64,000 nt of DNA from an uncultured Glaciecola sp. (GCA_937770335.1 CALJHY010000005.1:219221-283220), one strand, 5' to 3'; positions 30,522-64,000 are shown, counted from the first letter of the stretch. Program-made: numbers and translations. Notes: generated from the sequence alone by a model not told the origin.

Positions 30522-30537
30522 CTACAAGGAATACTGA

Positions 30538-32125: not shown

Positions 32126-32126
32126 G

Positions 32127-32581: not shown

Positions 32582-32598
32582 AAAAAGAGAGGACACAA

Positions 32599-45596: not shown

Positions 45597-45597
45597 T

Positions 45598-45717
45598 ACG
45601 CATTCCCAAGAACGACTAAGTGAGGTTGCAGCCCAACTAAATGAACGCCCAAGGAAAACATTGAAATTTAAAATACCATCACATATGATTGAAACGAGTG
45701 TTGCGCTGTTAGCTTGA
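45598..45717 (+). pseudogene. C-terminal fragment of an IS30-family transposase
   Basis: SQERLSEVAAQLNERPRKTLKFKIPSHMIETSVALLA* is the IS30-family LNxRPRKxLxFxTP tail. It abuts the minus-strand transposase fragment. Confidence 0.55.
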
Positions 45718-45858
45718 ATCCTCATCGGCGTTTTTCGCAAAGGAAATGAAATAAAGTATTCATTTATAACAAGTTTAGGTAGGCAGTAACTAGTAGCTAT
45801 GTCATGTAAAGTGATGTGCGTTAGCAAATCTGCTTACTATGCTTAGCGAAAGCGCCCC

Positions 45859-47754: not shown

Positions 47755-47832
47755 TTTTTATTATTGAGTATTAATTTTATTTAGCCTTAATTAAAACCAT
47801 TGAAATATTTGAAGTCCCAATGGTCTTTTAAC

Positions 47833-49563
47833 TTAACCGATCAATATATCAGCCATACGTTCACCTATAATAATGGTTGGCGCCATTGTATTCCCAGTAG
47901 ATACTCGTGGCATTATTGAAGCGTCTGCTATGGATAACCCCTGAACGCCATAAACTGAGAGTTTACTATTCACTACGGACATTTCATCACGACCCATTTT
48001 ACATGTGCAGCTTTCATGAAAATAGGTTCCTGTGGCATTACGTGCAAAATTTTCTAATTCTTTTGCTTTTAATGGGCCAGGCATGATTTCACGTTTTACA
48101 AACTCTTTCATCGGGCCCGAATTTCCAATTTCTCGACATAATTCTATTCCCCGAAGCAGCGCTGTTAGGTCCTCGGGCTCTTTCAAGAAGCCGCCATCGA
48201 TAAAAACATTATCAGCGGGATTTGATGATCTTAAACTCACACTGCCTCGACTTTTAGGACGGACTAATCCAGGTGCCATCGTCCAAGCTCCTGGAACAAC
48301 ATCATATTGAGCTCCAGTACTTTCTGTAACATAGGGGACTTCGATTTGAAAAGGTTGTAAATCTGGTGTATCTAACTTACTGTCACTTTTCCAGAAAAAT
48401 GTCGCTTCAGCGGCATTGTTATGTGGCGGTAATGGCTTTTTATATTCCCAAACACAACCTGCAGCAAGAATATGATCTTGGAAATTTTTACCCACGCCAG
48501 GCAAATTCACTTTTGATTTGATACCGTGGGCTGCTAGTTCATCCGCCGCACCGATACCTGATAGCATCAATATTTTGGGGGTATTGATTGCGCCTGCTGC
48601 CAAAATAATACGAGTGGTTGCACTGATATTATGAACCTTGCCATCTTTAATGAAATTGACGCCTGTGGCTTTTGTTCCTTCCATAATCAGCTTGTTAACT
48701 GTTGCCCCTGTCAGTAAAGTAATATTTGGTTTCGCTAGTACATCGTAGAGGTAATCAGAAGGTAAGTTTTTACGTCGGCCATTTTTAATTCGAAGGTTAG
48801 CTATAGCTGCTCCGCCATCACCTTCCATCATTTTACCGTTTTGATCTTCAAATGCTGGAATTCCTACAGATTCTGCTGCAGACAACATAGCAGGGGCTAT
48901 TGGATTCGGGTTTTTCGCAGGTTCAACCCAAAGTCGCCCGCCTTTACCTCTGCGTTTATCATCAGGTATTCCTTGCCAATCCTCAATTCGTTGGTAAATT
49001 TTTAGTACGTTTTCATAATTCCAGGCGCTGTCACCAGCTTCTTCAGCCCACATATTAAAATCATTTTTGTGTCCGCGAGAATAAGCAGAAGCATTAATGG
49101 ATGAACCACCGCCAACAACCTTGCCCATTGGTAAGATTAAGGAACGACCGTTAACTGTAGGACTTGGTTCTGCTTTATAACCCCAATCACGCTCACTCAT
49201 TATATTGGTTGGCCACAGACCTGGTATCTGCACCGCGTCGACCTGATCGCTTCCACCTGCTTCTAATAGCAAAACTTGTGCATCAGTTTCAGCTGCTAGC
49301 CGACCAGCAACTACAGCACCGCCTGTGCCACTGCCAATAACAATATAATCATATGAAGATTTTAATGCTTGTGAGTTATAAAGTTGATTTATTGCGACAG
49401 CCTCACCTTGCTTTGCAATAACACTAGCAGCAGCAAGACTGACTCCAGTAGCCACAGCCATCTTTATAAACTCTCTACGGCCAATCTTTCCTCGAAAAAG
49501 TGCAGACTCAAGTAAATTTAAGTGATCGCCAGAAGTAAGATCACCAGTAATTATGGCTTTCAT
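47833..49563 (-). CDS. Tat-exported GMC family flavin oxidoreductase (choline/alcohol dehydrogenase-like)
   Basis: The twin-arginine signal reads GRREFIKMAVATGVSLAAA. The FAD motif is YDYIVIGSGTGGAVVAGRLA. GMC signatures run along the whole length. Confidence 0.85.
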   Translation of the reverse strand: MKAIITGDLTSGDHLNLLESALFRGKIGRREFIKMAVATGVSLAAASVIAKQGEAVAINQLYNSQALKSSYDYIVIGSGTGGAVVAGRLAAETDAQVLLLEAGGSDQVDAVQIPGLWPTNIMSERDWGYKAEPSPTVNGRSLILPMGKVVGGGSSINASAYSRGHKNDFNMWAEEAGDSAWNYENVLKIYQRIEDWQGIPDDKRRGKGGRLWVEPAKNPNPIAPAMLSAAESVGIPAFEDQNGKMMEGDGGAAIANLRIKNGRRKNLPSDYLYDVLAKPNITLLTGATVNKLIMEGTKATGVNFIKDGKVHNISATTRIILAAGAINTPKILMLSGIGAADELAAHGIKSKVNLPGVGKNFQDHILAAGCVWEYKKPLPPHNNAAEATFFWKSDSKLDTPDLQPFQIEVPYVTESTGAQYDVVPGAWTMAPGLVRPKSRGSVSLRSSNPADNVFIDGGFLKEPEDLTALLRGIELCREIGNSGPMKEFVKREIMPGPLKAKELENFARNATGTYFHESCTCKMGRDEMSVVNSKLSVYGVQGLSIADASIMPRVSTGNTMAPTIIIGERMADILIG

Positions 49564-49722
49564 TGTAATTTCCTCTATTGTTAAATTTTTATTGTTATAA
49601 ATGAGTTATTAAGCGTTAGGCTTTAACTTAGGCCCAAATTCACTCAGAAAAAAAGAGATTGTACGCCATTAAATTAAAAAGTATTTCAACCGTAAATAAC
49701 TGATAATTATTATATTTCCATT

Positions 49723-51192
49723 TTAAAAAGGGTATGCACGTTTTACTTGTTGAGTAGATATCCAACGTTGCGCTGTAAATGCTTCTATTGCACCAGTGCC
49801 TCCCCATTTACCTATACCTCCCGAATCTTTCATACCACCGAAGGGACAGTGAGGCTCATCGTGAACAGTTGAATCATTAATGTGCACCATGCCTGAATCA
49901 ATCTTTAGTGCCATTATTGAGGCATGGTGTGTATCACCACTAACAATTGCCGCGGTTAAGCCGTAAGGCGTATCATTAGCTATGTTGATGGCTTCTTCTT
50001 CACTGTCTACGGGGATTATTAGAGCTACAGGACCAAATATTTCATCACGATAAATTTCCATATCAGGGGTAATATCAGTTATTACTGTAGGTTGATAAAA
50101 AGGACCTTCTATATTTCCTCCCGTTTGTATGACTGCCCCATCTTTTTTAGCTTCACTGACAAGGTAATGAATGCGCTTTAGTTGGCGATCATTAATAATA
50201 GGACCTATGACGGCATATTCACTATGCGGATCCATTGGGCTGAAGTTTCGTACTTTTGAAGTGAATTTTTCTACGAATAAAGCGTATAGACTGCGGGGTA
50301 CAATAATTTTGTCAGCAGACATACATATTTGACCTTGATGCAAAAATGCACCGAAAAAGGCCACATCAACCGCATAATTTAGATCTGCATCCGCTAAAAT
50401 AATGATAGGATTTTTTCCACCCATCTCAAGCATTACACGCTTGAACCTTTGTGCACATGCGATTGAGATTTGCCGGCCCACTGCCGTTGAGCCCGTAAAG
50501 CTTATGCAATCAATACGAGGGTCTTCAATCATTTGATCTGCTAGCCTTTTTACATTGTCTCGGCTGCAAGTGATAACATTTATAACCCCTCTTGGAAATC
50601 CAGCATCTTCTAACAATTCCGCTATCATTAATCCGCCTGTTAACGGTGAGTCTTCTGAAGGCTTCAGGAGAGCGGTATTACCAAGCGCTATTGCATAAAT
50701 GAAACTGCGTAAGGATAGATATAATGGAAAATTCCAAGGAGATATAGCACCAACGACTCCCAGCGGTTGTCGAATGATAGTATTGACTTTTCCCGGTACA
50801 TTAGAAGGGAGTATTTCTCCATTAGGACGTGTAGTTAAGGCTGCAGCTTCACAGAAGGCTAAAGGGATAATGCTGCACTCATACATTGCCTTGCCAAGCG
50901 TTGATCCCGTTTCTTCTATAAGTGTGTTAACAAAATGTTCTTCACGGAGCTTAAATAGTTCTGCTGCTTTGTAAAAAAAATCTGCACGAGTGGTTGGTGG
51001 TAATGCGGCCCATGCTTCTTGCGCCTTGCTTGCAGCAGTAATAGCATCGTTTACGTCAGTACCGGTCGCATCTGCTATTGAGCGAAAGGTTTTCTGAGAT
51101 GTTGGATTTATGTTGTTAAAATACTGATCCAACTCAGGTTCTACCCATTTTCCGTCTATAAAGAGTTTGCTTGAATTTAATTTGTTTTTCAT
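49723..51192 (-). CDS. NAD(P)-dependent aldehyde dehydrogenase
   Basis: 489 aa with FTGSTAVGR, the LEMGGKNP catalytic Glu region and the GQICMSADK catalytic Cys. Confidence 0.88.
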   Translation of the reverse strand: MKNKLNSSKLFIDGKWVEPELDQYFNNINPTSQKTFRSIADATGTDVNDAITAASKAQEAWAALPPTTRADFFYKAAELFKLREEHFVNTLIEETGSTLGKAMYECSIIPLAFCEAAALTTRPNGEILPSNVPGKVNTIIRQPLGVVGAISPWNFPLYLSLRSFIYAIALGNTALLKPSEDSPLTGGLMIAELLEDAGFPRGVINVITCSRDNVKRLADQMIEDPRIDCISFTGSTAVGRQISIACAQRFKRVMLEMGGKNPIIILADADLNYAVDVAFFGAFLHQGQICMSADKIIVPRSLYALFVEKFTSKVRNFSPMDPHSEYAVIGPIINDRQLKRIHYLVSEAKKDGAVIQTGGNIEGPFYQPTVITDITPDMEIYRDEIFGPVALIIPVDSEEEAINIANDTPYGLTAAIVSGDTHHASIMALKIDSGMVHINDSTVHDEPHCPFGGMKDSGGIGKWGGTGAIEAFTAQRWISTQQVKRAYPF

Positions 51193-51312
51193 TGTTAGTC
51201 TCCTTTACTTTTAGTAAATGCTAACAACTTTTATATATCTCTAGCATGATGAAACTATCAATATATGGTACAAAAATATCAAAATTAACGTTTTAAATTT
51301 TTATTATTCTGT

Positions 51313-52182
51313 TTATCGACCTCTAAATTGACTGGGTGTTTCACCGGTGATTTGACGAAAAACCCGATCAAAATGACTGCTGTCAACAAATCCAAGTTCA
51401 TGGGATAAAATTGAAATCATTGTTTCCTTTTTCTTAAGCGCTTTCTTGGCTAGGTCAATACGATTTTGATTGGCGAAACGTGTAGGAGTGACACCAAAAT
51501 GTGTTCGAAACTTTCGAAAAAAACTGGATGAACTCATACAAGCTATTTTTGATAATACTTCTGTAGAAAACCGAGAGTGAGGAGTTCTAATAATATGATC
51601 TGAAGCTGCAAGGATACCCTTACTCGGCACTGTCGTTATGCGTTTGACTAAGACGTTATGTGATTGTGACTGCAGTAAGCGTGTGAAAAGACCATTTAAT
51701 TTTGATTCAACTAATACCTCCCGAAATTCTGTGCTTTTTTCAGAAAAAAGTGAAAGTAGACGATCTAGTTGAAAGTCAAATTCATTATCATCTGAAAATA
51801 TAAGGAATCGACTCCAGTCAATGTGAATTTCCCCACTGATAGCTTGGTGAATACGAGCCTGATTTATACTGTTAATAATGCTGTCAATCCTGTTTCTTCC
51901 TATTTCAATACACACACATTCTGTTGGGTTTCTGATACTGGTATCAGGAAAAAGAATAGAAAGTTTCATTCCGGGAGGTAAAAACATAGTTTGGCCAGGT
52001 AACAATTGGAATGGTATTGAATCGTCAACTCTAATGATTTTTCGGCCAGACTCCATTCGGAACAAAATTAGATTTGAGAAGCAGAGGTCGACACTTACTT
52101 GCTGGTTAGTTATGTAAGTTGAAACTTCTGAACCTGAGCTATAATGCACTGTTCTATACTCTATTAGTTTTTCAGCATTCAT
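51313..52182 (-). CDS. AraC family transcriptional regulator
   Basis: The C-terminal double HTH includes SSSFFRKFRTHFGVTPTRF and GFVDSSHFDRVFRQITGETPSQFR. Confidence 0.85.
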   Translation of the reverse strand: MNAEKLIEYRTVHYSSGSEVSTYITNQQVSVDLCFSNLILFRMESGRKIIRVDDSIPFQLLPGQTMFLPPGMKLSILFPDTSIRNPTECVCIEIGRNRIDSIINSINQARIHQAISGEIHIDWSRFLIFSDDNEFDFQLDRLLSLFSEKSTEFREVLVESKLNGLFTRLLQSQSHNVLVKRITTVPSKGILAASDHIIRTPHSRFSTEVLSKIACMSSSSFFRKFRTHFGVTPTRFANQNRIDLAKKALKKKETMISILSHELGFVDSSHFDRVFRQITGETPSQFRGR

Positions 52183-52310
52183 AAATAGAAACTCCTAAAT
52201 TATTACTTGCGATGTATTTTTTATATCTCTTGGATTTATCTCATATATGAATAGCTTGGATAAATAACATGAATGTCGTAATTAAGACTCAATAAGTAAA
52301 ATAAATGCCT

Positions 52311-53525
52311 TTATTGTCGATTCAATGGCCATTTATCAAAGAATGTATTAAAAAGTAATATACACATTAAAAAGGAAAATTGGCCAGCAAGGACCCCTAA
52401 TGATGTAACACCCATGCCTATGTCATTAGATCCAATTGGTAATAAGTGGTATGTTTTCAACCATATAATACCAAAAATCGCACCCCCTACAAACCATATA
52501 GCTATTCTACACCATATTCTTAACGTATCATTTTGAACTAACTCTTTGCTTGGATAGTCATCAAATAAATGATGCCATGCGAGCATAAAAACAATAACGG
52601 AAAGTTCCAGAGAAGCCACTAACACATCAATGGGTAGCCCAGGTACCAAATTGTAAGGTTCTATAATACCTCTAATAAGAGGTGGCAATGTAAAACCACC
52701 TATTAGAGCAATAACAAAACCAATAATACCCATTCGGGGTTGTTTTTTAGCAAAAAACTTCATGGGATACATTTCAGCACCCTCTACGGGCATAATCGCG
52801 AAAATCACATATGCTTGGCAAAAAGCAACAAATGCAGGCCAATTACCAAAGGGTTTATTAAAGACATCGTGACCGTTAATTGTAAAATGCATCAAACTAG
52901 GCACAATTAAAGTCATCCAAACCATCCACGTAATGGCAATACCGAGTAATAAAACACTTAAATGGTCGCTTAAATTGTCTACTTTTTTAGTAAAAGGCCA
53001 TTTATGAAATAACGCAATTAACGGTATCTGGGTAATAATTACAGCTAATGCAAAAAAATTACTTGCTTCCCAAGCTTCAATAGCAATATGCACTTCTTCA
53101 ACAGATTGAGGGGTAAACATTATCGAGAGGCTAAAAGGATGCCACCAAATCCCTAGTAAACTAATTAGGATTAAAAAGGCGCCTATCCCTAAAGCACAAC
53201 TGACCAGAGTATAATATAGACCTGCAAAAGGTTGCTTGGTAGTGAATGTCGTTTTACCGAAAGTTCCTAAAACAATAGATAACCAAATCCAGCCATTAAT
53301 AATCATCCAAAAAAAAGTACCTTCGGAAAAAGCTTTTAATAAATGATGCTGTTGATCAAGAGACGCAACAGTCATACCAACTTTCGCAATGCTAATATAT
53401 ATAGCTTGTGACGCTAATGACCATATTGGCCAAAGAATACAAGCCGCAATGAAACTCAATATCAGAGCAACTGTTCCTGTAATCAGTGGACTACTAAACA
53501 TTCTTTTATGTTCGACTACCAGCAT
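52311..53525 (-). CDS. Polytopic inner-membrane protein of unknown family (about 10-12 TM segments)
   Basis: 404 aa, highly hydrophobic and Trp-rich. No transporter signature was recognised. It sits between the TonB-dependent receptor and the AraC gene. Confidence 0.6.
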   Translation of the reverse strand: MLVVEHKRMFSSPLITGTVALILSFIAACILWPIWSLASQAIYISIAKVGMTVASLDQQHHLLKAFSEGTFFWMIINGWIWLSIVLGTFGKTTFTTKQPFAGLYYTLVSCALGIGAFLILISLLGIWWHPFSLSIMFTPQSVEEVHIAIEAWEASNFFALAVIITQIPLIALFHKWPFTKKVDNLSDHLSVLLLGIAITWMVWMTLIVPSLMHFTINGHDVFNKPFGNWPAFVAFCQAYVIFAIMPVEGAEMYPMKFFAKKQPRMGIIGFVIALIGGFTLPPLIRGIIEPYNLVPGLPIDVLVASLELSVIVFMLAWHHLFDDYPSKELVQNDTLRIWCRIAIWFVGGAIFGIIWLKTYHLLPIGSNDIGMGVTSLGVLAGQFSFLMCILLFNTFFDKWPLNRQ

Positions 53526-53632
53526 AAATACCTCTTATTAAACCAAGACTATTCGTAGAATATATAACTAAATATTAAAGCAAAAAAACAGCCAGTTAAC
53601 TCTTCAGTTAGCTGGCTAGAAGTACTACATAT

Positions 53633-56008
53633 TTAGAATCTATATTTTGCTGATAATGACCATTCGCGTCCACGTGCAAATACGACTTCTGAATATGATG
53701 ATGATTCATTTAGTGCCGTGTTACCTGCTACTTTGAATAGCTCATCTGATAAATTAGTCACACCAAAAGTTACGCTATATATATATTCAGGAGAGACCCA
53801 ATTAACAGACGCATTAATAAGATTATATCCATCCTGACTAATTTCAGGTGAATTTAGTGAATCAAAGAAAACATCATCACGATATGCCCAATCTACTCTG
53901 GGTGTAATTATTCCTCCTCCTGATATTTCATACGTGTATACTAAACCTAAACTCGAATTTAGCTCGGGTACATGAGGCATTTTATTACTCAGTTTAACCC
54001 CTGCATCCTGAATATCTTGACTTAAATCTGTATATTCAGCATCTACATAACCTAAGCTACTAACTACTTCTAGATTTTCGCTTGCCAACCATGTAACTTC
54101 AAGTTCTAGCCCTCTAATTTCAGCTTCACCTGCGTTAAACACAATTGGTGCAAAGTCTTCTCTGATTACAAATTGAAGTTCTGTATATGCAGTACTAAAT
54201 ATCGCACCATTGACTCGTAATCTGTTTTCTAGCAAGTCGGCCTTAAAACCAAATTCAAATGTTGCAGCCTTTTCTGGTTCAAACGTCCTAACTACTGGGC
54301 CTGGTTTAATATTACGTGCATTATAGCCACCGCTTTTAAAGCCTTCTGAATAACCAAAATAAACCATGGTTTTATCATTTATTTGATACGATAAATTAAA
54401 CATAGGCGTAGTATCGGAGTATTGTTCTTCATTCCAATCTAAAGGGAAAAACAAGGTTCCTTCAGGAACAACTGCAACATTACCGCCCCCTACCGTAGGA
54501 TAAATATTACCGTCAAACGGATGAATATAACCACCGTCCCCATCCTGCTCTTCACCAGCAATAGGGAATAAATAGGTGCTTTCAGTAAATTGTATTGGGA
54601 AGAATCCTTTATTTTCTTCTGTCCACCTTGCACCTACAGTCAACGATAACTGTTTTGTAAAATCATAGGTTAGCTGTCCAAATGCTGCGATAGAATCATT
54701 TTCAACTAAGCCACCGGTATTAAAAATACCCACAGCAGTAGGGACATAATAATCATCAGTTGCCTCTTCATTAAAATAATAAACTCCCGTTAACCAGTTA
54801 AACGCTCCATCGTAAGCATCACCTGTTAATTGAATCTCTTGGCTGAATTGATTTTGAGTATCGTCATTTCGAGTATGCAATATAACCAAAGGTGTATTAT
54901 CGGCATCTCTGGCACTAGACCACTCCATTTCTCTATAGGAAGTAATAGATTTTAGAGAGAAATTAGTGAAATCAGCAGTTACTATTAAACTCGTACCCCA
55001 ACTTTCAAACGTTGACTCCACTTCGCCAGTACCATAATTAGCATACGGCCCCGCATCCCAATCGCTATTTTCACAACGTGTTCTCAAGTCGCCTTCATCA
55101 AATGTTGCACTAGCGCAACCAGTATCAGGATTAGCTTTTGCCAATCGAGTAAAGAGCCCTTCACCTAATCCATTAAACGCTATAGGTGAGCCTGTTTCGT
55201 TCTCATCTATATAATCGGTTGTCCAGTAAACATTCAAATTATCTGATGGTAACCAGTTAACAGCAAAACGACCACCTTGACTATTATCATCACCTAATTT
55301 TGTACCATCAAGTAAACGTGTAACGTAGCCATCTCGCGTACGTGAACCTAATGATAAGGAGGTTAAAAGCTCATCATTTATTGGCATGTCGAGTGATAAC
55401 TTTAATTCTTGACGGTTATCAGAGCCGACTTTAGCGTCCACATAGCCTTCAAATTCGTCCCTAGGACGACGTGTTGTTAAACTTATCGCGCCACCAATTG
55501 TGTTCCGTCCAAAAAGGGTGCCTTGGGGGCCGCGCAGTATTTCTATTTGCTGTAAATCAACAAAGTCTAATGTTGCTCCAACTGAACGGGCCATGTAGAC
55601 CTCGTCTATATATAAACCTACCCCCGGATCTGTTGTTGGTAAAAATTCGGTTTGGCCAATACCTCTTATAAATATTTGAGAAGAAGCATTATTACCAGAA
55701 GATGGTGCATTTGAGGAGAAAGATAAATTAGGTGTAATTTGAGTTAATTGATCAGAAGAGTCTATTTGTCTACTTTCTAATTCATCAGCACTGAAGGATG
55801 TTATTGATATGGGCGTCTCTTGTAAGTTTTCAGTTCTCTTGCGAGTAGTAACAATGATCTTTTCTAAACCTTCAAATTTTTCTGGATCGGCTTTTTTTTC
55901 TTCGTCAGCGGCATATGTTGGTGTGATACCTAAAATGGCGGTTAACACGGCAATTGAAAGCGCACTGATTTTTACTTTACTGGTTCCTGATTGTATACTC
56001 TGATTCAT
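53633..56008 (-). CDS. TonB-dependent outer-membrane receptor
   Basis: 791 aa with a signal peptide. The plug region has EKIIVTTRKR and IEILRGPQGTLFGRNTIGGAI. The C-terminus ends ...SAKYRF. Confidence 0.9.
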   Translation of the reverse strand: MNQSIQSGTSKVKISALSIAVLTAILGITPTYAADEEKKADPEKFEGLEKIIVTTRKRTENLQETPISITSFSADELESRQIDSSDQLTQITPNLSFSSNAPSSGNNASSQIFIRGIGQTEFLPTTDPGVGLYIDEVYMARSVGATLDFVDLQQIEILRGPQGTLFGRNTIGGAISLTTRRPRDEFEGYVDAKVGSDNRQELKLSLDMPINDELLTSLSLGSRTRDGYVTRLLDGTKLGDDNSQGGRFAVNWLPSDNLNVYWTTDYIDENETGSPIAFNGLGEGLFTRLAKANPDTGCASATFDEGDLRTRCENSDWDAGPYANYGTGEVESTFESWGTSLIVTADFTNFSLKSITSYREMEWSSARDADNTPLVILHTRNDDTQNQFSQEIQLTGDAYDGAFNWLTGVYYFNEEATDDYYVPTAVGIFNTGGLVENDSIAAFGQLTYDFTKQLSLTVGARWTEENKGFFPIQFTESTYLFPIAGEEQDGDGGYIHPFDGNIYPTVGGGNVAVVPEGTLFFPLDWNEEQYSDTTPMFNLSYQINDKTMVYFGYSEGFKSGGYNARNIKPGPVVRTFEPEKAATFEFGFKADLLENRLRVNGAIFSTAYTELQFVIREDFAPIVFNAGEAEIRGLELEVTWLASENLEVVSSLGYVDAEYTDLSQDIQDAGVKLSNKMPHVPELNSSLGLVYTYEISGGGIITPRVDWAYRDDVFFDSLNSPEISQDGYNLINASVNWVSPEYIYSVTFGVTNLSDELFKVAGNTALNESSSYSEVVFARGREWSLSAKYRF

Positions 56009-56023
56009 TTAACTATCCCCTTT

Positions 56024-56071
56024 AATAAACTAATAAACTACTAAACTACTAAACTACTAAATTGCTAAATT
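56024..56071. repeat. Six tandem 8-bp units (NNTAAAYT) in the leader of the TonB-dependent receptor gene
   Basis: AATAAACT AATAAACT ACTAAACT ACTAAACT ACTAAATT GCTAAATT, lying 16-63 nt upstream of the receptor ATG (56008). Confidence 0.9.
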
Positions 56072-56176
56072 ATTGTGTATATTACAACTGATGCAACGAG
56101 CTAGCATAACAATGTCCCGCCCTAATATGCAGGATGTCTCATTGGAACTAGCACACCTTCTTATTTGCTTATATCA

Positions 56177-56295
56177 CAATAAAATTGCCGCGAATGGAAT
56201 TGTTAGGCATGGCCCTTGGCGTCATCGACAACTTATAACTTTCGAATTGTCTGTATTTGAATAATAAAAGTGCTAATTTTTTCAATTAATATCAT
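56177..56295 (-). pseudogene. Decayed 5' remnant of a muconate cycloisomerase (catB) copy
   Basis: The reverse strand from the ATG at 56295 reads MILIEKISTFIIQIQTIRKL*. Its first 54 nt are 46/54 identical to catB at 63695. After a deletion of roughly 190 bp it matches again: TCCATTCGCGGCAATTTTATTG versus 63977-63998. Confidence 0.8.
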
Positions 56296-56381
56296 GTTAA
56301 ATAATTGTTGCTGTATGGTTAACGTTTGATTAACTTAATGACTATTTACATCAATAACCAATATCAAATTAGTCGGTAGCG

Positions 56382-56396
56382 ATACCTTGGAGGTAT
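56382..56396. promoter_or_regulatory. LysR-type operator ATAC-N7-GTAT (BenM/CatM/CatR site-1 consensus), copy A
   Basis: ATACCTTGGAGGTAT overlaps the LysR start codon. The 99-bp divergent region 56296-56394 is 86/99 identical, without gaps, to 63596-63694 in inverted orientation. Confidence 0.6.
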
Positions 56397-57297
56397 GATG
56401 GAATTACGGCACTTAAGGTATTTTTGCGTGGTAGCGGAAGAGCTAAATCTGACTAAAGCTGCGGAAAAGCTATACATTTCACAACCTCCCTTAACAAGGC
56501 AAATCAAGCAGTTAGAGGAAGATATTGGTGCGGTTTTGTTTATTCGCCAAGCACGAGGGTTGGCACTGACTCAGGCAGGCCAGTACTTTTGGCGACACGC
56601 GAAACAAATTTTAGCCAAAGTAACGGTAACTGTCGAAGAAACCCGCCGAGTTGCTGAACATGGTAAAGATTTATTCAGAATCGGCTTTGTGCCGTCGGTA
56701 TTTTACGGTCAGTTACCTTCTCTTGTGAGACGGTTACGGCAAAATACGAATGCTGAAATAGTGTTGCATGAGTTGAAAACAGGGGAGCAACTTGAGGCTT
56801 TAAAAATCGGAGAAATTGATATTGGATTTGGTCGCCTGCATATTGAGGATCCTGAAATCGAGCAAACCATTTTATTTCAGGAAACAATGTTGGCTGCGCT
56901 GCCTAAAGGCCATAGTCTCGCTGTCCAGTCACCTTCAATGGCAGAGCTGGCGAAACTACCTATGATTCTATACGCTGCGGGACAAGGTCTAACATTTGCA
57001 GATATCTGCATGGGGCTATTTACCCGCAGTGGCCTGCGTGTAAATGTTGCTCAGCAAGTGAATGACATTCAAACTGCACTAGGACTAGTGGCGTCAGAGA
57101 TGGGTTTTACACTCGTGCCCGAACAAATGAAAAGGCTTAACCGCGACGATGTTGCGTTTGTGTCCTTGCAGGACAAATCCATTACAAGTCCGGTTATTTG
57201 CTCTCGCAGAAAAGAGCCCTACAGCGATATAATGATAATAGCGTCTGAGATCTTAGATGAGTTGGTCGAAAACCGGTTAACCGGTCGATACCCATAA
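56395..57297 (+). CDS. LysR family transcriptional regulator (CatR/CatM/BenM-like by context)
   Basis: MMELRHLRYFCVVAEELNLTKAAEKLYISQPPLTRQIKQLEE is the LTTR winged HTH. The protein is 300 aa. It is divergent from a catB remnant. Confidence 0.88.
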   Translation: MMELRHLRYFCVVAEELNLTKAAEKLYISQPPLTRQIKQLEEDIGAVLFIRQARGLALTQAGQYFWRHAKQILAKVTVTVEETRRVAEHGKDLFRIGFVPSVFYGQLPSLVRRLRQNTNAEIVLHELKTGEQLEALKIGEIDIGFGRLHIEDPEIEQTILFQETMLAALPKGHSLAVQSPSMAELAKLPMILYAAGQGLTFADICMGLFTRSGLRVNVAQQVNDIQTALGLVASEMGFTLVPEQMKRLNRDDVAFVSLQDKSITSPVICSRRKEPYSDIMIIASEILDELVENRLTGRYP

Positions 57298-57336
57298 AGA
57301 AATAGCATTGCATTATATTTAATTGTAAGAAGGTTT

Positions 57337-58116
57337 TTATCTGGTGTGCTCAATAATTTTTTTGGCTGCTTCCTGCAGATCAATCAAATAATCGTCGACA
57401 AGCTGTGCCAAACTTACACGTAATGCATTAGTACTGATATTAATGGCACCCAGTAACTTGCCGTGATAGTTAAAAAGGGGAACGGCTAATGAACGTAAAC
57501 CCAGTTCTAGCTCCTGATCGACAATACAATATCCTTGATGTTTAACCTCTTTTAGCATTTCAATAAACTTGGATTTATCTACGATACTTTTTGTGGTGTG
57601 TGAATTTAATACAAGAGATTCAATCCACTGATGCTGTTCCGATTCAGCAAGTTGAGTTATTAAAATCCTACCCATTGACGTATATGCTGCAGGCAATCGG
57701 GTTCCGGGTGTTAGATTAATCGACATCAGTCGGTGAGCAGCACTTGAGCGTACCAAATAAACAATTTCTTGATTATTAAGCACTGCCAGCGAACAGGATT
57801 CGCCGAGCTTAGTTGTAATCTCTTCAAGGTAGTGCTTCACGACATCGAGATGGTTATTTGTAGCGGTATAGGCATATCCCAACTGCAGTACTTTAGGAGA
57901 GAGCATAAACTCTCTGCCATCTTTCTGGATATAGCCCAATGAATGCAGGGTTAATAAAAAACGCCTAGCTTTAGCTCTGTCCATCCCAGTTCGTTCTGCT
58001 ACTTCAGACAAAGTCATTTGCTTGTGCTGAGTATCGAATGCTCCAATAACTTCAAGTCCCGATGCTAGGGCACCAACATAATCTCGATGGGCGGGGTACA
58101 ATTTCTCATCATTCAC
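57337..58116 (-). CDS. IclR family transcriptional regulator (PcaR/PcaU-like by context)
   Basis: 259 aa. The N-terminal HTH reads MTLSEVAERTGMDRAKARRFLLTLHSLGYI, followed by an IclR effector domain. It is divergent from pcaIJFD. Confidence 0.85.
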   Translation of the reverse strand: MNDEKLYPAHRDYVGALASGLEVIGAFDTQHKQMTLSEVAERTGMDRAKARRFLLTLHSLGYIQKDGREFMLSPKVLQLGYAYTATNNHLDVVKHYLEEITTKLGESCSLAVLNNQEIVYLVRSSAAHRLMSINLTPGTRLPAAYTSMGRILITQLAESEQHQWIESLVLNSHTTKSIVDKSKFIEMLKEVKHQGYCIVDQELELGLRSLAVPLFNYHGKLLGAINISTNALRVSLAQLVDDYLIDLQEAAKKIIEHTR

Positions 58117-58265
58117 GGATAAAGCCTCTTTAATCTACGATGTTTAAATTATTTTAGGTCTACTCTTAAGGTCCTAGTATAACTATTTGTTTATCATGGA
58201 GTTAATAATAAACACTAGGGCTCTTTCATGATCTAACTTGACTATCCGTTAAGTATAGATTAAGT

Positions 58266-58301
58266 TGTTCGCATAGTAAATTTAAATTCGCTATGCGAAC
58301 A
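58266..58301. promoter_or_regulatory. Perfect 11-bp inverted repeat just upstream of pcaI (candidate IclR-type operator)
   Basis: TGTTCGCATAG (58266-58276), a 14-nt spacer, then CTATGCGAACA (58291-58301). It ends 12 nt before the pcaI ATG. Confidence 0.55.
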
Positions 58302-58312
58302 CAAGAGGTGTT

Positions 58313-59128
58313 ATGGCTACTTTCATGTCACTTGCCCAAGCAATAGAGGCAGGAGTAAAAAATGGTAATTCTGTTGCGATGGAGGGGTTTACTCACCTTA
58401 TACCCTTCGCTGCTGGTCACGAAATAATTCGTCAGAAAAAGCAAAATTTAACTCTTATCCGTATGACACCAGACTTAATTTATGATCAACTGGTGGGTGC
58501 GGGCTGCGTTAAAACGTTAGTCTTTTCTTGGGGGGGTAATCCTGGTGTAGGATCCCTACACCGTGTGCGAGATGCTATTCAGAATGGATTCCCCAAGGAT
58601 TTAGAAACGGTTGAGCACAGCCATGCTGCAATGGCTAACGCCTATGAAGCTGGTGCCGCAGGTTTACCTATGGCGGTTTTTCGTGGCTATATTGGCAGTG
58701 AATTATCAGATGTAAACGACCAGATAAAGTTCATAACCTGTCCATTTACGTCTGAAAAACTGGCCTGTGTACCAGCGATTAAACCCGATGTTGGTATTAT
58801 ACATGCGCAAAAAGCTGATCGCCAAGGTAATGTATTAATTGAAGGTATTATTGGTGTACAGAAAGAAGTGGTGCTGTCAGCTAAACACAGCATTGTAACT
58901 GTTGAAGAAGTTGTCGATAAGCTTGACGCACATCCTAATTCCTGCGTATTACCTGCTTGGACCGTTGATAGTATTGTCGTGGCCAAAGGCGGTGCACATC
59001 CTTCTTATGCCCATGGCTACTATATGCGCGACAACCAATATTATAAAAATTGGGACGCAATAAGTCGCGACCGGGAAAGTTTCAGTCAATGGTTGCAAAG
59101 CGAAGTCTTGCAAGCGGGAGGACAATAA
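58313..59128 (+). CDS. pcaI: 3-oxoadipate CoA-transferase subunit A (glutaconate-CoA-transferase-like type)
   Basis: 271-aa CoA-transferase A-subunit pattern. It is followed by the B subunit, a thiolase and an enol-lactonase. Confidence 0.7.
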   Translation: MATFMSLAQAIEAGVKNGNSVAMEGFTHLIPFAAGHEIIRQKKQNLTLIRMTPDLIYDQLVGAGCVKTLVFSWGGNPGVGSLHRVRDAIQNGFPKDLETVEHSHAAMANAYEAGAAGLPMAVFRGYIGSELSDVNDQIKFITCPFTSEKLACVPAIKPDVGIIHAQKADRQGNVLIEGIIGVQKEVVLSAKHSIVTVEEVVDKLDAHPNSCVLPAWTVDSIVVAKGGAHPSYAHGYYMRDNQYYKNWDAISRDRESFSQWLQSEVLQAGGQ

Positions 59129-59129
59129 T

Positions 59130-59948
59130 ATGGCTACAAATTATACTTCGACTGAAATGATGACCATTACAGCTGCTCGGTCTTTGAGTAGTCACATGAC
59201 TTGTTTTGTTGGTATCGGTCTACCCAGTGAAGCGGCTAATGTTGCGCGAATGACGCACGCGCCAGATATTACCCTTATTTATGAGTCTGGCACTATCCAG
59301 ACTCAACCAAAAATTTTACCTCTTTCCATAGGTGATGGCGAACTATGTGAATCGGCGCTGACCACCGTCTCAGTGCCTGAAATGTTTCGTTATTGGTTGC
59401 AAGGAGGTCATGTCGATGTTGGTTTTTTAGGGACGGCACAAATTGATAAATATGCAAATCTTAACACTACAGTAATCGCTACGAAGTATGATAAAAATGG
59501 CAAAAATGGCAAACAAAGTTACGCTCATCCTCGCGTAAGGTTACCAGGCGGTGGTGGGGCGCCAGAAATATCTACTAATGCTAAAGAGGTATTCATCACA
59601 GTTAAACATTCAACTCGTACTTTTGTAGAAGAAGTCGACTTTGTCACTACAGTTGGTTTTGGCCGTGATGGTAAAGCTCGTGATAACCTTCCCCAGGTAG
59701 GACTTGGACCAACCGCAGTCATTACTGATTTATGCATTTTAAAACCACACCCTCAAACCAAAGAACTTATAGTTGTTAGTCTCCATCCATGTGTCTCCCG
59801 AGATCAGGTTATTGAAGCAACAGGTTGGCAAATTAAGTTTGCCGATACCCTTTCTACAACAAAAGCCCCTAGCGATATTGAACTAGAAATTTTACGAGAT
59901 CTAAAAGCTAGAACTGAAAAAGCGCATAACCAACAGGAGGATCAATAA
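59130..59948 (+). CDS. pcaJ: 3-oxoadipate CoA-transferase subunit B
   Basis: 272 aa, starting 2 nt after the pcaI stop. It contains a LPGGGGAPE loop. Confidence 0.7.
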   Translation: MATNYTSTEMMTITAARSLSSHMTCFVGIGLPSEAANVARMTHAPDITLIYESGTIQTQPKILPLSIGDGELCESALTTVSVPEMFRYWLQGGHVDVGFLGTAQIDKYANLNTTVIATKYDKNGKNGKQSYAHPRVRLPGGGGAPEISTNAKEVFITVKHSTRTFVEEVDFVTTVGFGRDGKARDNLPQVGLGPTAVITDLCILKPHPQTKELIVVSLHPCVSRDQVIEATGWQIKFADTLSTTKAPSDIELEILRDLKARTEKAHNQQEDQ

Positions 59949-61150
59949 TGTCAGTGTATCTTTGTTCGCCTAGGCGCTCTGCTATTGGTCGCTACGGCGG
60001 TGCTTTAGCTAATGTTCGCCCTGATGATATGCTGGCACAGGTTATTCGTGCCGTGATTGCCGATGCGAGCAAACTTGATGTTAGTCAAATTGATGATGCA
60101 ATTTTTGGTTGCGCCAACCAGGCTGGGGAAGATAACCGTAACGTTGCTCGTATGGCAACTCTTCTCGCGGGATTGCCATTTGGGGTTCCCGCGACGACGA
60201 TCAATCGTTTATGTGGTTCTGGTATGGACGCAATAGGCACCGCGTTTAGAGCCATCGTTGCATCAGAGGCCAGTTTGTTGCTTGCAGGTGGGGTTGAATC
60301 AATGTCACGAGCGCCATTTGTCTTAGGCAAAGCCGGTGGACCATACGATCGTACTCAACATATGGAAGACACCACTATGGGTTGGCGTTTTGTTAATCCA
60401 GCTCTCGACGCCCTTTACGGAACAGAAACGATGCCAGAGACAGCGGAAAATATCGCCGAACGGTATAATATTTCACGTCAAGATCAGGACAAATTTGCTT
60501 TAATGTCGCAAAAGAAAGCGCATCAAGCGCAGCGTGCTGGGCGGTTTAGCAAAGAAATAACGCCGATCAACTTTCAACCTCGACGAGGAGATGCGGTAGT
60601 GATTACCGAGGATGAGCACCTTCGTCCACAGACTACGCTTAAGGCGCTGGCTAGTTTAACGCCCTCGTTTCGTAAAAATGGCAGTATTACAGCAGGTAAT
60701 GCCTCTGGGATTAACGATGGCGCGGCAGCGATGTTGATTGCCAGTGAGCAGGCAGTGGTTCGTTATGAATTAACACCACTGGTGCGGATAGTAGGTATGG
60801 CTACCGCAGGCGTTGAACCTGCCTATATGGGAATTGGCCCCGTTCCAGCCGTGCGTAAACTACTTGACCGTACCAATGTGAAACTTGCGGATATTGCTGT
60901 AATTGAATTAAATGAAGCTTTTGCGGCTCAAGGCTTGGCCTGTATGAGAGAATTAGGCTTGGCAGATGATGACCCTCGTGTCAATCCAAATGGTGGGGCA
61001 ATAGCCTTAGGTCATCCATTAGGCATGTCGGGTGCGCGCTTAGTGCAAACCGCTGCCATCGAACTGCAACAGATACGAGGACGTTATGCACTATGCGCTA
61101 TGTGTATTGGTGTAGGGCAAGGTATCGCAATGTTAATTGAACGAGTTTAA
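59948..61150 (+). CDS. pcaF: 3-oxoadipyl-CoA thiolase (acetyl-CoA C-acyltransferase family)
   Basis: 400 aa with the thiolase active-site region INRLCGSGMDA. The C-terminus has NPNGGAIALGHPLGMSGAR and CIGVGQG. Confidence 0.8.
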   Translation: MSVYLCSPRRSAIGRYGGALANVRPDDMLAQVIRAVIADASKLDVSQIDDAIFGCANQAGEDNRNVARMATLLAGLPFGVPATTINRLCGSGMDAIGTAFRAIVASEASLLLAGGVESMSRAPFVLGKAGGPYDRTQHMEDTTMGWRFVNPALDALYGTETMPETAENIAERYNISRQDQDKFALMSQKKAHQAQRAGRFSKEITPINFQPRRGDAVVITEDEHLRPQTTLKALASLTPSFRKNGSITAGNASGINDGAAAMLIASEQAVVRYELTPLVRIVGMATAGVEPAYMGIGPVPAVRKLLDRTNVKLADIAVIELNEAFAAQGLACMRELGLADDDPRVNPNGGAIALGHPLGMSGARLVQTAAIELQQIRGRYALCAMCIGVGQGIAMLIERV

Positions 61151-61158
61151 GGCTTATT

Positions 61159-61944
61159 ATGCATCAATATCACCCATCTATAAACGCAGTCGTAAACGGC
61201 GACAATAAACATCCTGCTTTAGTCTTGGGGCATCCTTTAGGGATGAGCTTGCGGGCCTGGGAAGATGTTGCTATAGCGCTATCTGAATATTATTTCGTTG
61301 TGCGCTGGGATTTGCCGGGCCATGGTCAAAGTAACCCTGTAGCGAAAAGTACGCAACAATTGAATGAACTTGAATTGGTTAACCAGATTATTGAAATTTG
61401 TGCTGCTCTAGACATCAAGCAGTTTCATTATGCAGGTACGTCAATTGGTGGAATTATAGGTCAGCAACTTGCAATATACCATCCAGATAAATTGTTAAGT
61501 CTTACACTGACCAATACAGGGGCCAAAATTGGTACCAACGAAGCTTGGTTGCAGCGCAAAAAAGATGTTGATCAAAAAGGACTTGCAACCATGAGCGAAG
61601 CCATAGTTGCACGCTGGTTTAGCCCAAAAATTATTAGTACCAACCCACAAATTAAAATTGACTGGCAGCGACAGTTGTCTAATACGGATGATCATTCGTA
61701 TGGTTTGTTATGCGCTTGGTTAGGTGAACAAGATTACTGCAATGTATTAAAACCTAGCTCATTACCCATGAATTTTGTAGCTGGGGAAGATGATGTAGCC
61801 ACGCCGCCAGATTTGGTTCGTGAGTTAGCTTATTTACTGGGGAATAATGATGTTATCCAATTGAGCGGCGTGGGTCATGTACCCGGTGTTGAAGCGCCTG
61901 CAAGTATGATTAACATACTACAACACTCTAAAAATAGAAATTGA
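61159..61944 (+). CDS. pcaD: 3-oxoadipate enol-lactonase (alpha/beta hydrolase)
   Basis: 261 aa with the nucleophile elbow GTSIGG and HVPGVEAP near the C-terminus. It holds the expected position in the pca operon. Confidence 0.65.
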   Translation: MHQYHPSINAVVNGDNKHPALVLGHPLGMSLRAWEDVAIALSEYYFVVRWDLPGHGQSNPVAKSTQQLNELELVNQIIEICAALDIKQFHYAGTSIGGIIGQQLAIYHPDKLLSLTLTNTGAKIGTNEAWLQRKKDVDQKGLATMSEAIVARWFSPKIISTNPQIKIDWQRQLSNTDDHSYGLLCAWLGEQDYCNVLKPSSLPMNFVAGEDDVATPPDLVRELAYLLGNNDVIQLSGVGHVPGVEAPASMINILQHSKNRN

Positions 61945-61965
61945 AAATATGGGGCAACATATAAT

Positions 61966-61992
61966 GTCATTTTATGAAAAATGACGTTTTTA
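61966..61992 (+). terminator. Rho-independent terminator after pcaD
   Basis: GTCATTTT (61966-61973) pairs with AAAATGAC (61978-61985) and is followed by GTTTTTA. Confidence 0.65.
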
Positions 61993-62088
61993 TCTTTCTA
62001 ATAGTCAGATAAAGATCTCCGCGTGCAGGTTCGCAGGTGTTTTCAAACGGTCATACTGTAGTAAAAGAATAATCAGGGAAAACGGCTC

Positions 62089-63330
62089 ATGCCCCACAAT
62101 AAATTGAAAACTATTTTTGCATCCTCTACCGACCTCTCATCCGGCTACTCACTCCGAGATGCATTCAATTTTAAGTCTGTCAGTGGAGGGGTAACTGCTG
62201 CGCTATTCGGCTGTTCTGGGCCGGCGTTGATAATCATTAGCGCAGCCAAAGCGGGCCATTTGAGTGATGGCCAGACGGTTTCCTGGCTATTTGCCATTTA
62301 CGTGCTTAGTGGACTGATCAGCATAGGCATGGCGCTCCGTTACCGTCAGCCAATCTGCGGCGCTTTTTCGATAACTGGGGCGGTTATCATGGTCACGGCG
62401 CTCGACGGGCTGGACTTCCGTGCGGCGGTCGGTGCTTTCATCATGAGCGGTGTGTTGGTCTTGTTGCTCGGCTTGAGCGGGGTGGTTAACAAGCTGATGC
62501 GCTGGATGCCGATGCCTATCGTTATGGCAATGATCGTCGGGGCGATGATTCGATTTGCTGTCAGCGCCGTAGAAGCAGTCGACAGCTTTCCTCTAATGGC
62601 CGGTCTGGCTGCGCTGACCTACTTTATATTCATGCGTTTTTTCAAAGCCGTGCCGCCGGTGCTGGCAGCCGGAGTGGTGGGGTTCGCCGTGGCATTGGCT
62701 TTGGGACTACTGAATCCGACGGATGTGGATATTGCCTTCGTTATGCCAGCTTTTACCACTCCTATGTTCACCTTTGCCACTTTCTTCGCTATATCGGTAC
62801 CGCTGGCAGCGCTGATAATCGGTGCTGACAATGCCCAGGCCACCGGCGTTTTGATGGTCGAGGGTTATAAGCCACCGGTCAATGCGATGACGGTTGTGTG
62901 CGGTTTGGGTGGTATTTTTTCTGGGATTTTAGGTGGGCATAGCATCATTATCGCCGGACCGATGACGGCGATTTGCGGTTCTGCGCAGTCCGGAGACGAT
63001 CCACGTCAACGATACGGGGCGGCTTTGGTGAATGGAGTGCTGTTTACCCTATTCGGTGTTTTTGCCGGCCTCGCCGTACCATTCCTCCTCGCCTTGCCGC
63101 GCGAGTTGATCATGGTAATTGCTGGACTAGCGATGATCGGAGTTTTGCTTAGCGCACTGCAGCAGGCGTTTCGCAAAGAAACTGGCTTCCAGATTGGTGC
63201 ATTCGTCGCCTTAGTCGTAGCTATGAGCAAATTCAGCCTGTTCGGTATTAGCGCACCGTTTTGGGCGCTGGTGATCGGCATAGCACTTGCTTGGTTGCTC
63301 GGCGAGTTCCGCCGTGAGCATGCTGACTAG
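62089..63330 (+). CDS. benE: Benzoate/H+ symporter BenE family membrane transporter (GC-rich relative to surroundings)
   Basis: 413-aa polytopic protein. The N-terminal region reads SGGVTAALFGCSGPALIIISAAKAGHLSDGQTVSWLFAIYVLSGLISIGMALRYRQPICGAFS, which resembles BenE/YdcO. Confidence 0.7.
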   Translation: MPHNKLKTIFASSTDLSSGYSLRDAFNFKSVSGGVTAALFGCSGPALIIISAAKAGHLSDGQTVSWLFAIYVLSGLISIGMALRYRQPICGAFSITGAVIMVTALDGLDFRAAVGAFIMSGVLVLLLGLSGVVNKLMRWMPMPIVMAMIVGAMIRFAVSAVEAVDSFPLMAGLAALTYFIFMRFFKAVPPVLAAGVVGFAVALALGLLNPTDVDIAFVMPAFTTPMFTFATFFAISVPLAALIIGADNAQATGVLMVEGYKPPVNAMTVVCGLGGIFSGILGGHSIIIAGPMTAICGSAQSGDDPRQRYGAALVNGVLFTLFGVFAGLAVPFLLALPRELIMVIAGLAMIGVLLSALQQAFRKETGFQIGAFVALVVAMSKFSLFGISAPFWALVIGIALAWLLGEFRREHAD

Positions 63331-63454
63331 AGGCGATTTACTACTGGCCTGCACTGACAAACCGCACATTTTCAAAGGCGTTATCCAACCGGATTTTCCA
63401 AATTCGTAGCTTAATCAAACTGCACATCAATAAGGGTAAACTACCCTAGATGAT

Positions 63455-63595
63455 TGATTATACCAGTATGTTGCTCTGGCTACATAATTTGCCTTATTAA
63501 GGGCGGTTGTGGAATGAATCATTTTTCAACCGTTTTAATTAGATTTAGCTTTCCAGCTACTACCCAAAAAACTTTAATTACCATAGTTTTATCAT
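63455..63595 (-). pseudogene. Decayed 5' remnant of a second copy of the LysR (catR-like) gene
   Basis: The reverse strand from the ATG at 63595 reads atgataaaactatggtaattaaag... It aligns with codons 1 to about 45 of the intact LysR gene at 56395, roughly 70% identical by eye. It carries stops at codon 6 (TAA) and later (TAG, TAG) plus 1-nt indels. Confidence 0.75.
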
Positions 63596-63608
63596 ACCTC
63601 CAAGGTAT
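63594..63608. promoter_or_regulatory. LysR-type operator ATAC-N7-GTAT, copy B (upstream of intact catB)
   Basis: ATACCTCCAAGGTAT begins 101 nt upstream of the catB ATG. The motif and spacing are the same as in copy A. Confidence 0.6.
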
Positions 63609-63694
63609 CGCTGCCGACTAATTCGATATTGGTTATTGAAGTAAATAATCATTAAGTTAAGGGGACGTTAACTATATGGTAACAGTTATTTAAC

Positions 63695-64000
63695 ATGATA
63701 AAGATTGAAAAAATCAGCACCTTTATTATTGATATACCGACAATTCGACCTCACAAATTATCAATGACGTCAATGGCAATACAATCTATGGTGATTGTGC
63801 GGATCCGTGATTCACAAGGTTTAGAAGGCATCGGTGAAGGCACCACAATTGGCGGTTTGGCATACGGCCCAGAAAGCCCAGAAAGTATTAAAACCAATCT
63901 TGATACTTATTTTATCCCACTACTTTGTAATAAACCCCTGGACAGTATAAAAGAACTAATGAACATGCTGAACAGGTCCATTCGCGGTAATTTTATTGCA
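63695..64000 (+). CDS. catB: Muconate cycloisomerase (mandelate racemase/MLE family), 5' part; runs off the right edge
   Basis: MIKIEKISTFIIDIPTIRPHKLSMTSMAIQSMVIVRIRDSQGLEGIGEGTTIGGLAYGPESPESIK... is a typical CatB N-terminus. Confidence 0.8.
   Translation, partial: MIKIEKISTFIIDIPTIRPHKLSMTSMAIQSMVIVRIRDSQGLEGIGEGTTIGGLAYGPESPESIKTNLDTYFIPLLCNKPLDSIKELMNMLNRSIRGNFIA

Follow-up and report, generated by a model that had tools for sequence, protein, structure and literature searches.

Inverted copies of a LysR-catB control region bracket a 7-kb catabolic gene block in an uncultured Glaciecola lineage and point to an ancestral inversion

We analyzed a stretch of 64,000 nucleotides from an uncultured Glaciecola sp. 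(GCA_937770335.1, CALJHY010000005.1:219221-283220), hereafter called the window, in which a block of genes for aromatic catabolism lies between two inverted copies of the control region that separates a LysR-type regulator gene from catB. One copy (copy A) adjoins the intact LysR gene and a degenerate piece of catB, and the other (copy B) adjoins the intact catB and a degenerate piece of LysR. In the window, intact LysR and intact catB are not paired divergently; each of these genes faces a stub of the other. The features of the locus are listed below, with positions counted from the first letter of the window and the two stubs denoted catB' and LysR'.

53633-56008, minus strand: TonB-dependent receptor gene, left neighbor of the rearranged segment
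56009-56142: left junction spacer, separating the TonB-dependent receptor start codon from the distal catB' end
56143-56295, minus strand: catB' stub of copy A, consisting of catB nt 1-86, then nt 271-~325, then sequence up to nt 370, with deletions of 184 bp and 31 bp
56296-56394: control region copy A, 99 bp, in the ancestral position beside the intact LysR gene
56382-56396 (copy A) and 63594-63608 (copy B): ATACCTTGGAGGTAT dyad, ATAC-N7-GTAT, a putative LysR-type 'Site 1' box that overlaps both ribosome-binding site and ATG of LysR
56395-57297, plus strand: intact LysR-type regulator gene, CatM/BenM-like, 300 aa, its first 135 nt within arm A of the repeat
57337-58116, minus strand: IclR regulator gene of the PcaR/PcaU/PobR family (TIGR02431, 296 bits, above the cut-off of 284.75)
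58313-59128 and 59130-59948, plus strand: CoA-transferase subunits A and B, in the position of pcaIJ
59948-61150, plus strand: 3-oxoadipyl-CoA thiolase gene pcaF (profile match)
61159-61944, plus strand: 3-oxoadipate enol-lactonase gene, pcaD-like (profile match)
62089-63330, plus strand: benE-family benzoate transporter gene, the final gene of the inverted block (TIGR00843, 224 bits, above the cut-off of 203.4)
63331-63461: right junction spacer, from the benE stop codon to the distal end of the LysR' stub
63462-63595, minus strand: LysR' stub of copy B, corresponding to LysR nt 1-135 (45 codons), with its ATG at 63595
63596-63694: second 99-bp control region (copy B), preceding the intact catBCA-benABCD operon
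63695-64000, plus strand: 5' part of the intact catB gene, muconate cycloisomerase (TIGR02534, 1.1e-33 on the 102 aa inside the window)

The LysR protein matched the NCBIfam models for CatM (1.7e-62; 211 bits vs. a cut-off of 580) and BenM (5e-57; 193 bits vs. 600), and its closest solved structures in a PDB search were CatM (2h98; 6.5e-56) and BenM (3k1n). These scores suggest a similarity to CatM/BenM at the level of the family, not of an equivalog. A first-pass annotation of the window, made by a model from the sequence alone, had assigned LysR, IclR, pcaF, pcaD, benE and catB, and at the family level these labels held. Its label pcaIJ did not, since the two CoA-transferase subunits scored far under the PcaI and PcaJ cut-offs (39.9 vs. 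128.5 and 37.4 vs. 243.6, respectively). The gene order from CoA-transferase A/B through pcaF to pcaD (58313-61944) was kept in all relatives. Downstream of catB, metagenome contig L001 carried catC, catA and benA, and contig L073 a complete catBCA-benABCD operon. A plasmid database search with positions 56000-64000 returned no match, and an Rfam scan of 55500-64000 at E ≤ 1 returned nothing.

The two gap copies, 56296-56394 and the reverse complement of 63596-63694, were identical at 86 of 99 positions without gaps. Homology continued into both flanking genes, with a gapped blastn match of 56242-56529 to 63462-63748 (235/289, 81%, 3 gaps, E 1e-64) and, beyond a deletion, a second high-scoring segment pair of 30/35 between 56177-56211 and 63964-63998. 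A repeat scan of the 64-kb window listed this long inverted repeat alone, with arms at 56242-56424 and 63566-63748 (84% identity, 7141 nt between them), and the repeat is far beyond chance. At their full extent the arms occupied 56143-56529 and 63462-~64064, in inverted orientation and exactly at the two ends of the block; arm B passes the end of the window by ~64 nt, where it reaches catB nt 370. The first-pass annotation had reported the ungapped identity of the 99-bp core, its continuation into both flanking genes, and the bracketing of LysR, IclR, the genes that it labeled pcaIJ, pcaF, pcaD and benE by inverted copies of which one keeps LysR and the other catB. All of these observations were reproduced.

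The same arrangement with both arms had been assembled independently in several metagenome samples (L001-L006). L001 was 99% identical to the window, and L002-L006 encoded an identical LysR protein. A metagenome pattern scan with the shared box yielded four further contigs. The identity of the other rearranged lineages to the window was 97.7% for L073/L074, ~88-90% for L075/L076, 88.8% for L072 and 86-95% for L077. Gene order and both stubs, where covered, agreed with the window in all rearranged contigs. The orientation was consistent with that of the window in 11/11 metagenome contigs, six of which spanned both arms, and the opposite orientation occurred in 0/11. The inversion polymorphism for which the first-pass annotation had suggested a search was thus not found among these contigs, which represent several samples and lineages.

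To locate the ends of homology, the stubs of all rearranged lineages were aligned with the intact genes. The catB' stub starts at an ATG at 56295 on the minus strand and runs into a stop at codon 21. Its 184-bp deletion, corresponding to catB nt 87-270, was common to the window lineage and L072, the extra 31-bp deletion occurred in the window lineage, and the stub of L076 carried a bigger deletion of about nt 17-315. The LysR' stub contains seven in-frame stops and a 1-nt deletion; additional deletions were present in L077, and L075 had a small tandem duplication at the LysR start. These results agree with the earlier description of a catB stump stopped at codon 21 and of a LysR remnant of ~45 codons with stops and indels. 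The deletion in the catB stump had been estimated at ~190 bp, and the renewed match reported for 56177-56198 was confirmed, but the stub reaches further, to about 56143.

At the catB junction, the homologous sequence ends with ...CCTATTTCAA (nt 370); this end was intact in L072 and L076 and eroded yet recognizable in the window and L074. The LysR junction, ...TGGT followed by ATAATCAAT (nt 135), was found in the window, L073 and L075, while in L077 the stretch had been removed by a later deletion. Both outer junctions are common to all rearranged lineages, base for base where the stretch survives. The unit that was originally duplicated hence comprised 370 (catB) + 99 (gap) + 135 (LysR) = about 604 bp. 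No further catB, catC or LysR sequence was detected past the junctions in any lineage, and the spacers at 56009-56142 and 63331-63461 showed no homology to catBCA, to LysR or to other parts of the window.

The left spacer holds an 8-mer tandem repeat, TAAACTAC x5.5, at 56026-56069, ~75 nt from the left junction. Among the window, L072, L074 and L076 this repeat differs in copy number and in its minus-strand unit (TTTAGTAG / TTTAACAA / TTTAGTAA). Two antisense open reading frames (ORFs) extend over the stubs on the plus strand, at 56073-56264 (63 codons) and 63454-63621 (55 codons), and the former was called as a 57-aa gene in the Joint Genome Institute annotation of L001-L003. Lineage-specific deletions break both ORFs, and they are most likely spurious.

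A scan of the genome collection with the LysR protein identified the closest sequenced relatives in Aliiglaciecola (72-73%), Marinomonas (67-69%) and Alteromonas (66%); none of the species representatives in this collection carries the locus at >73% LysR identity. Six genome loci, from Aliiglaciecola (L007-9), Alteromonas (L012-13) and Marinomonas (L016), shared the order catA<-catC<-catB<-gap->LysR<-IclR->CoA-transferase A/B-pcaF-pcaD. Three other Marinomonas genomes had catBCA on the same side at a distance of 1.4-4.4 kb, and catBCA was not detected in one Marinomonas genome. Nearer relatives with this arrangement, all uncultured, were retrieved by a protein search (LysR 82-85% and catB 87-89% identical to the window). 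These loci (L078/L079, L080 and L081) were organized as benDCBA-catACB<-gap->LysR<-IclR->..., as determined by tblastn for L078, L080 and L081 and from called genes for L079. In all, ten un-rearranged loci were found, the metagenomic ones representing three lineages, and each contained one LysR-catB unit. Comparison with related genomes, as the first-pass annotation had proposed, thus recovered the single ancestral LysR-catB unit that it had postulated.

The LysR-catB gap measured 99-145 bp in the un-rearranged relatives and exactly 99 bp in Aliiglaciecola. Since catB stands in this position in the un-rearranged relatives, copy A marks the ancestral catB side of LysR. The order in the window differs from that of the relatives by one inversion, that of the LysR-to-benE block, and the catBCA-benABCD operon lies beyond pcaD-benE, inverted relative to LysR. 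In a synteny comparison, the left-hand genes of the window had weak paralogous matches only in the loci of the relatives. At the second breakpoint, between benE and the upstream side of the TonB-dependent receptor gene, the flanks were not conserved in any un-rearranged relative found.

Compared along the entire unit, copies A and B shared 79% identity with each other and ~69% with Aliiglaciecola. The A and B copies differed by ~21%, and both differed by ~21-23% from the nearest un-rearranged relatives. Neighbor-joining trees of the full unit and of each of its three parts placed all A and B copies in one clade, with L078, L080 and L081 outside. Within this clade, A and B copies formed separate subclades in the trees of the full unit and of the gap. 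Recent gene conversion within genomes was not clearly supported. The single clade of A and B copies and the shared junctions indicate that the duplication took place once, in an ancestor shared by the rearranged lineages.

Substitutions were polarized with Aliiglaciecola as outgroup. The ratio of substitutions in the stub to those in the intact copy was 23:8 for the catB part and 21:4 for the LysR part, and the corresponding ratio for the two gap copies was 5:5. In a comparison of the window with a ~88%-identical lineage, divergence was 8.1% in gap A and 9.1% in gap B, similar to the coding regions (9-13%), and reached 37% in the catB' stub and 27% in the LysR' stub. The spacers diverged by 27% (left junction), 24% (right junction) and 21% (between pcaD and benE). 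The difference between the gaps on the one hand and the stubs and spacers on the other was significant (Fisher; p = 2e-8). Across all gap copies, fixed differences between A and B were confined to three positions, and the 70 nt nearest LysR were almost invariant in every copy. As the gaps diverge like coding DNA, and the stubs and spacers far more, we conclude that purifying selection acts on the control region in both copies but not on the stubs.

The dyad ATACCTTGGAGGTAT was identical in every A and B copy, in Aliiglaciecola and in Marinomonas. In Alteromonas it reads ATACCCGGGAGGTAT, with the ATACC and GGTAT half-sites retained; the half-sites ATACC-N5-GGTAT were invariant in all copies and all genera. 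ATAC-N7-GTAT, a motif of the T-N11-A form, is the Site 1 motif of the CatM/BenM-regulated PbenA and PcatB promoters (PMC6628147), and the dyad fits a putative Site 1 box of the CatM/BenM type. Its center lies ~93 bp from the catB ATG, a distance that would suit a site at the customary -65 and a leader of ~29 nt. Inspection by eye suggested TTGGTT-17 nt-TAAGTT as a possible weak, activator-dependent promoter.

Two further loci showed variations of this control region. In L082 (LysR 80% identical), an independent rearrangement at the control region (2962-3268) has placed an aminotransferase gene where catB would stand. The break is located ~60 nt upstream of the LysR ATG, everything beyond it is lost, the box is retained, and the junction carries an 11-mer tandem repeat, TTTAAATTAAC x4. 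This locus suggests that the LysR promoter and operator may be contained within ~60 nt upstream of the ATG, and the LysR-catB gap may be a recurrent breakpoint. In the Marinomonas metagenome-assembled genome L016, where the gap is longer, a second copy of the dyad, GATACCTTAAAGGTATTGA, occurs nearer catB (~7010-7030) besides the one at the LysR start.

Taken together, we consider it probable that one ancestral inversion was coupled to a breakpoint duplication of ~604 bp. The ancestor had the order catA<-catC<-catB<-99-bp control region->LysR, followed by <-IclR and by ->CoA-transferase A/B, pcaF and pcaD. The ~7-kb LysR-to-benE block would have been inverted in an ancestor shared by a small group of uncultured marine gammaproteobacteria, one end of the inversion being staggered with breaks at catB nt 370 and LysR nt 135. 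Copying of the ~604 bp between these breaks would have left inverted copies at both ends of the block. The intact LysR gene would thereby have retained its own promoter and operator in copy A with a truncated catB adjoining, and the intact catBCA-benABCD operon would have retained its promoter and the binding site for the regulator in copy B with a truncated LysR upstream. LysR would have to reach copy B in trans over a distance of 7 kb, and it presumably continues to control its own gene through copy A. The stubs would then have drifted as pseudogenes, accumulating stops, indels and lineage-specific deletions, with both 99-bp regions held by purifying selection. Both the mechanism of breakage and the activity of the two control regions are what we infer from this pattern. 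A single inversion with one staggered end is the most economical account. Because the junctions are identical in all rearranged lineages and one staggered inversion explains the gene order, the second catB and the second LysR were most likely incomplete when they arose, and erosion has continued since. The first-pass annotation had read the locus as the footprint of an inverted duplication or inversion followed by complementary gene loss. The footprint was confirmed, but a complementary loss of two complete units was not, as the duplicated interval ends sharply, and identically in all rearranged lineages, at catB nt 370 and LysR nt 135. No transposable element or pre-existing repeat was found at the breakpoints, and the nearest insertion sequence remnant is ~10 kb away.

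Several observations weigh against an inversion with one staggered end. A search for inverted homology between the two junction spacers detected no duplication at the second breakpoint. The flanks beyond benD differ between rearranged and un-rearranged loci and share no sequence, so that the event is not polarized, and the sequence after pcaD in L078 matched neither benE nor the TonB-dependent receptor gene. With the outer flanks unshared, a simple inversion is not separable from an inverted copy-and-paste followed by deletion. Inversions through staggered breaks are documented mainly in flies, and many bacteria are devoid of classical end-joining; a template switch during replication may be the more realistic route in bacteria, and the same product could also come from a small inverted duplication whose copies later recombined. 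Both stubs were also 2-3 times more diverged in the window lineage than in L072, L075-76 and L077, an unevenness that a simple neutral clock does not predict. Functional genes were equidistant from the outgroups across the rearranged lineages, which ruled out a general difference in rate as the cause of the faster decay. Locally raised mutation in the window lineage could be the cause, and occasional gene conversion from the intact copies is a possibility that would have slowed stub decay in the sister lineages. Finally, consensus promoter and terminator scans of both arms gave no excess over shuffled sequences and nothing convincing in either gap, so that we infer the activity of either control region from conservation only.

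The observed end product would be identical if a full inverted duplication, with complete LysR and catB genes and perhaps the whole cat-ben operon, had been followed by reciprocal loss. Two deletions, of LysR from nt 136 and of catB from nt 371, would then have occurred before the lineages split. Such a history would include a remodeled tandem inversion duplication, and Kugelberg et al. reportedly described in 2010 how tandem inversion duplications in Salmonella are remodeled by junction deletions. Later deletions do occur in the stubs, and the flanks are not polarizable. However, at least three events (one duplication and two deletions) would be required, all before the lineages split, compared to one for a staggered inversion, and no trace of catB, catC or LysR lies past the junctions in any lineage. 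We thus regard a full duplication with subsequent loss as unlikely. The cat/ben clusters are often mobile, and the wider region contains insertion sequence remnants (rve domain, 45859-46458) and a duplicated TetR fragment, features that would suit two clusters of different origin, with a second LysR-catB unit received by horizontal transfer and each unit losing one gene. This origin is disfavored by the single clade of A and B copies, apart from the un-rearranged relatives in the full unit and in all three parts, and by the shared junctions. The A and B copies are also more similar to each other than either is to Aliiglaciecola, both gaps measure exactly 99 bp, and no mobile element is present at the junctions; a horizontally acquired second cluster thus appears very improbable.

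Inverted repeats that flank a block with regulator genes might also suggest a programmed DNA switch, in which the repeats serve as recombination sites and flipping of the 7-kb block alters expression. We give this explanation hardly any weight. The arms are 81% identical, and stretches of exact identity do not exceed 22 nt in the window or 33 nt in L001. Outside the 99-bp gap they consist of decaying pseudogene sequence. No recombinase gene is located in or beside the block, where all genes are catabolic, regulatory or transporter genes, and the only such sequence is the degenerate rve fragment. Moreover, all contigs examined were consistent with one orientation. Assemblers can be misled by repeats, and the window is metagenomic in type, but arms with 81% identity would not collapse or cross-join, and the structure was assembled independently in several samples, including lineages that are ~12% diverged. 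An assembly artefact or chimeric contig is therefore excluded.

Both copies retain the gap in full, and each is predicted to direct a promoter into a dead gene. From copy B, the LysR-type promoter would read across the LysR' stub in the direction of the benE 3' end. From copy A, the catB-type promoter would read across the catB' stub toward a string of genes that starts with the TonB-dependent receptor gene. This minus-strand string (46864-56008) encodes the TonB-dependent receptor, a 404-aa protein of unknown function, an AraC regulator, an aldehyde dehydrogenase, a GMC oxidoreductase and a MetA-type outer-membrane protein. The interval between the promoter and the TonB-dependent receptor gene lacked a terminator that was convincing or conserved. 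The one weak hairpin resembling a terminator, at 56115-56134, was not conserved in other lineages, and RNA folding of the minus strand over 56000-56300 indicated no structure (z = -0.14). It is conceivable, though doubtful, that copy A, with a putatively muconate-responsive catB promoter, has recruited this uptake and upper-pathway string into the CatM-like regulon via the 153-nt stub. If true, this recruitment would help explain the continued conservation of the catB-proximal half of copy A.

The wider window contains additional repeats and mobile-element traces. The 3' 429 bp (44349-44776) of a TetR-family gene (44160-44762) recur after benD in L073 (9111-9539, 95% identity), ~26 kb rightward, and this fragment is absent in the L077 lineage. 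The aromatic-catabolism region, from ~44.8 kb to past the end of the window, is bracketed by this direct repeat, an arrangement reminiscent of a segment that was integrated or duplicated in one piece. The insertion sequence remnants stand at the left edge of the catabolic region beside the TetR-family gene (45309-46458) and consist of an rve integrase-core ORF (45859-46458) and an unassigned 172-aa ORF on the opposite strand. Farther to the left, positions 29379-33231 comprise short cassette-like ORFs (a GNAT acetyltransferase, DUF3887 and unknowns) between repeated modules of ~60-210 nt, and the ORF ends at 30119 and 31026 precede 68-nt imperfect palindromes, AGACATAAC...GTTATGT. In its organization this segment resembles a cassette array of the integron type with attC-like sites; no integrase was identified in the window. 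At 25299-28889 are tandem paralogous alkaline-phosphatase genes on the minus strand (656 and 534 aa, ~70-74% nucleotide identity), the longer of which has an extra N-terminal segment of the DUF7151/collagen-like type.

When an inversion is bounded by inverted duplicates of sequence that used to be unique, it carries the signature of staggered breaks (Ranz et al. 2007, PLoS Biol, PMC1885836). As in these inversions, the order at our locus differs from that of outgroups by one inversion, a once single-copy stretch with gene fragments in it now stands at both ends in opposite orientations, the breakpoints are free of transposable elements, and the duplicated gene pieces degenerate. Unlike the cases from Drosophila and other eukaryotes, the inversion is a 7-kb event in a bacterium with the duplication detectable at one breakpoint only, and its repair need not have involved end-joining. 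A further difference from known staggered-break cases is that an entire bidirectional control region was duplicated and that selection has preserved it at each end of the block.

Tandem inversion duplications of Salmonella offer a bacterial route by which a segment could come to lie inverted, with inverted copies of unique sequence on either side. Those structures were reportedly seen as unstable intermediates selected in the laboratory, whereas the structure in the window is old and fixed in the clade. With respect to gene content, the locus resembles catM-catB and benM-benA of Acinetobacter baylyi ADP1 and CatR-catBCA of Pseudomonas: the ancestral LysR gene was divergent from catB, the dyad has the position of Site 1, and genes of the catechol branch follow downstream. 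In contrast to these systems, the regulator and the operon in the window are 7 kb apart, the control region is present once for each of them, and a single regulator is present for a catBCA-benABCD operon. A literature search retrieved no paper on a bacterial precedent that combines an inversion, an inverted duplication and a divergent promoter. The rearrangement is a bacterial case of a known type of event, not a new molecular system.

A breakpoint in a 99-bp bidirectional region would normally sever either the regulator or the operon from its promoter and operator, and the duplication spared both. The locus shows in bacteria a signature of duplication plus inversion that is best known from Drosophila. 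It also illustrates that regulatory DNA can be duplicated without duplication of the genes, and that a divergent pair of a LysR regulator and its target can separate and still persist. In addition, three or four independently decaying copies of two dated stubs are useful for studying neutral decay and deletion bias in an uncultured lineage.

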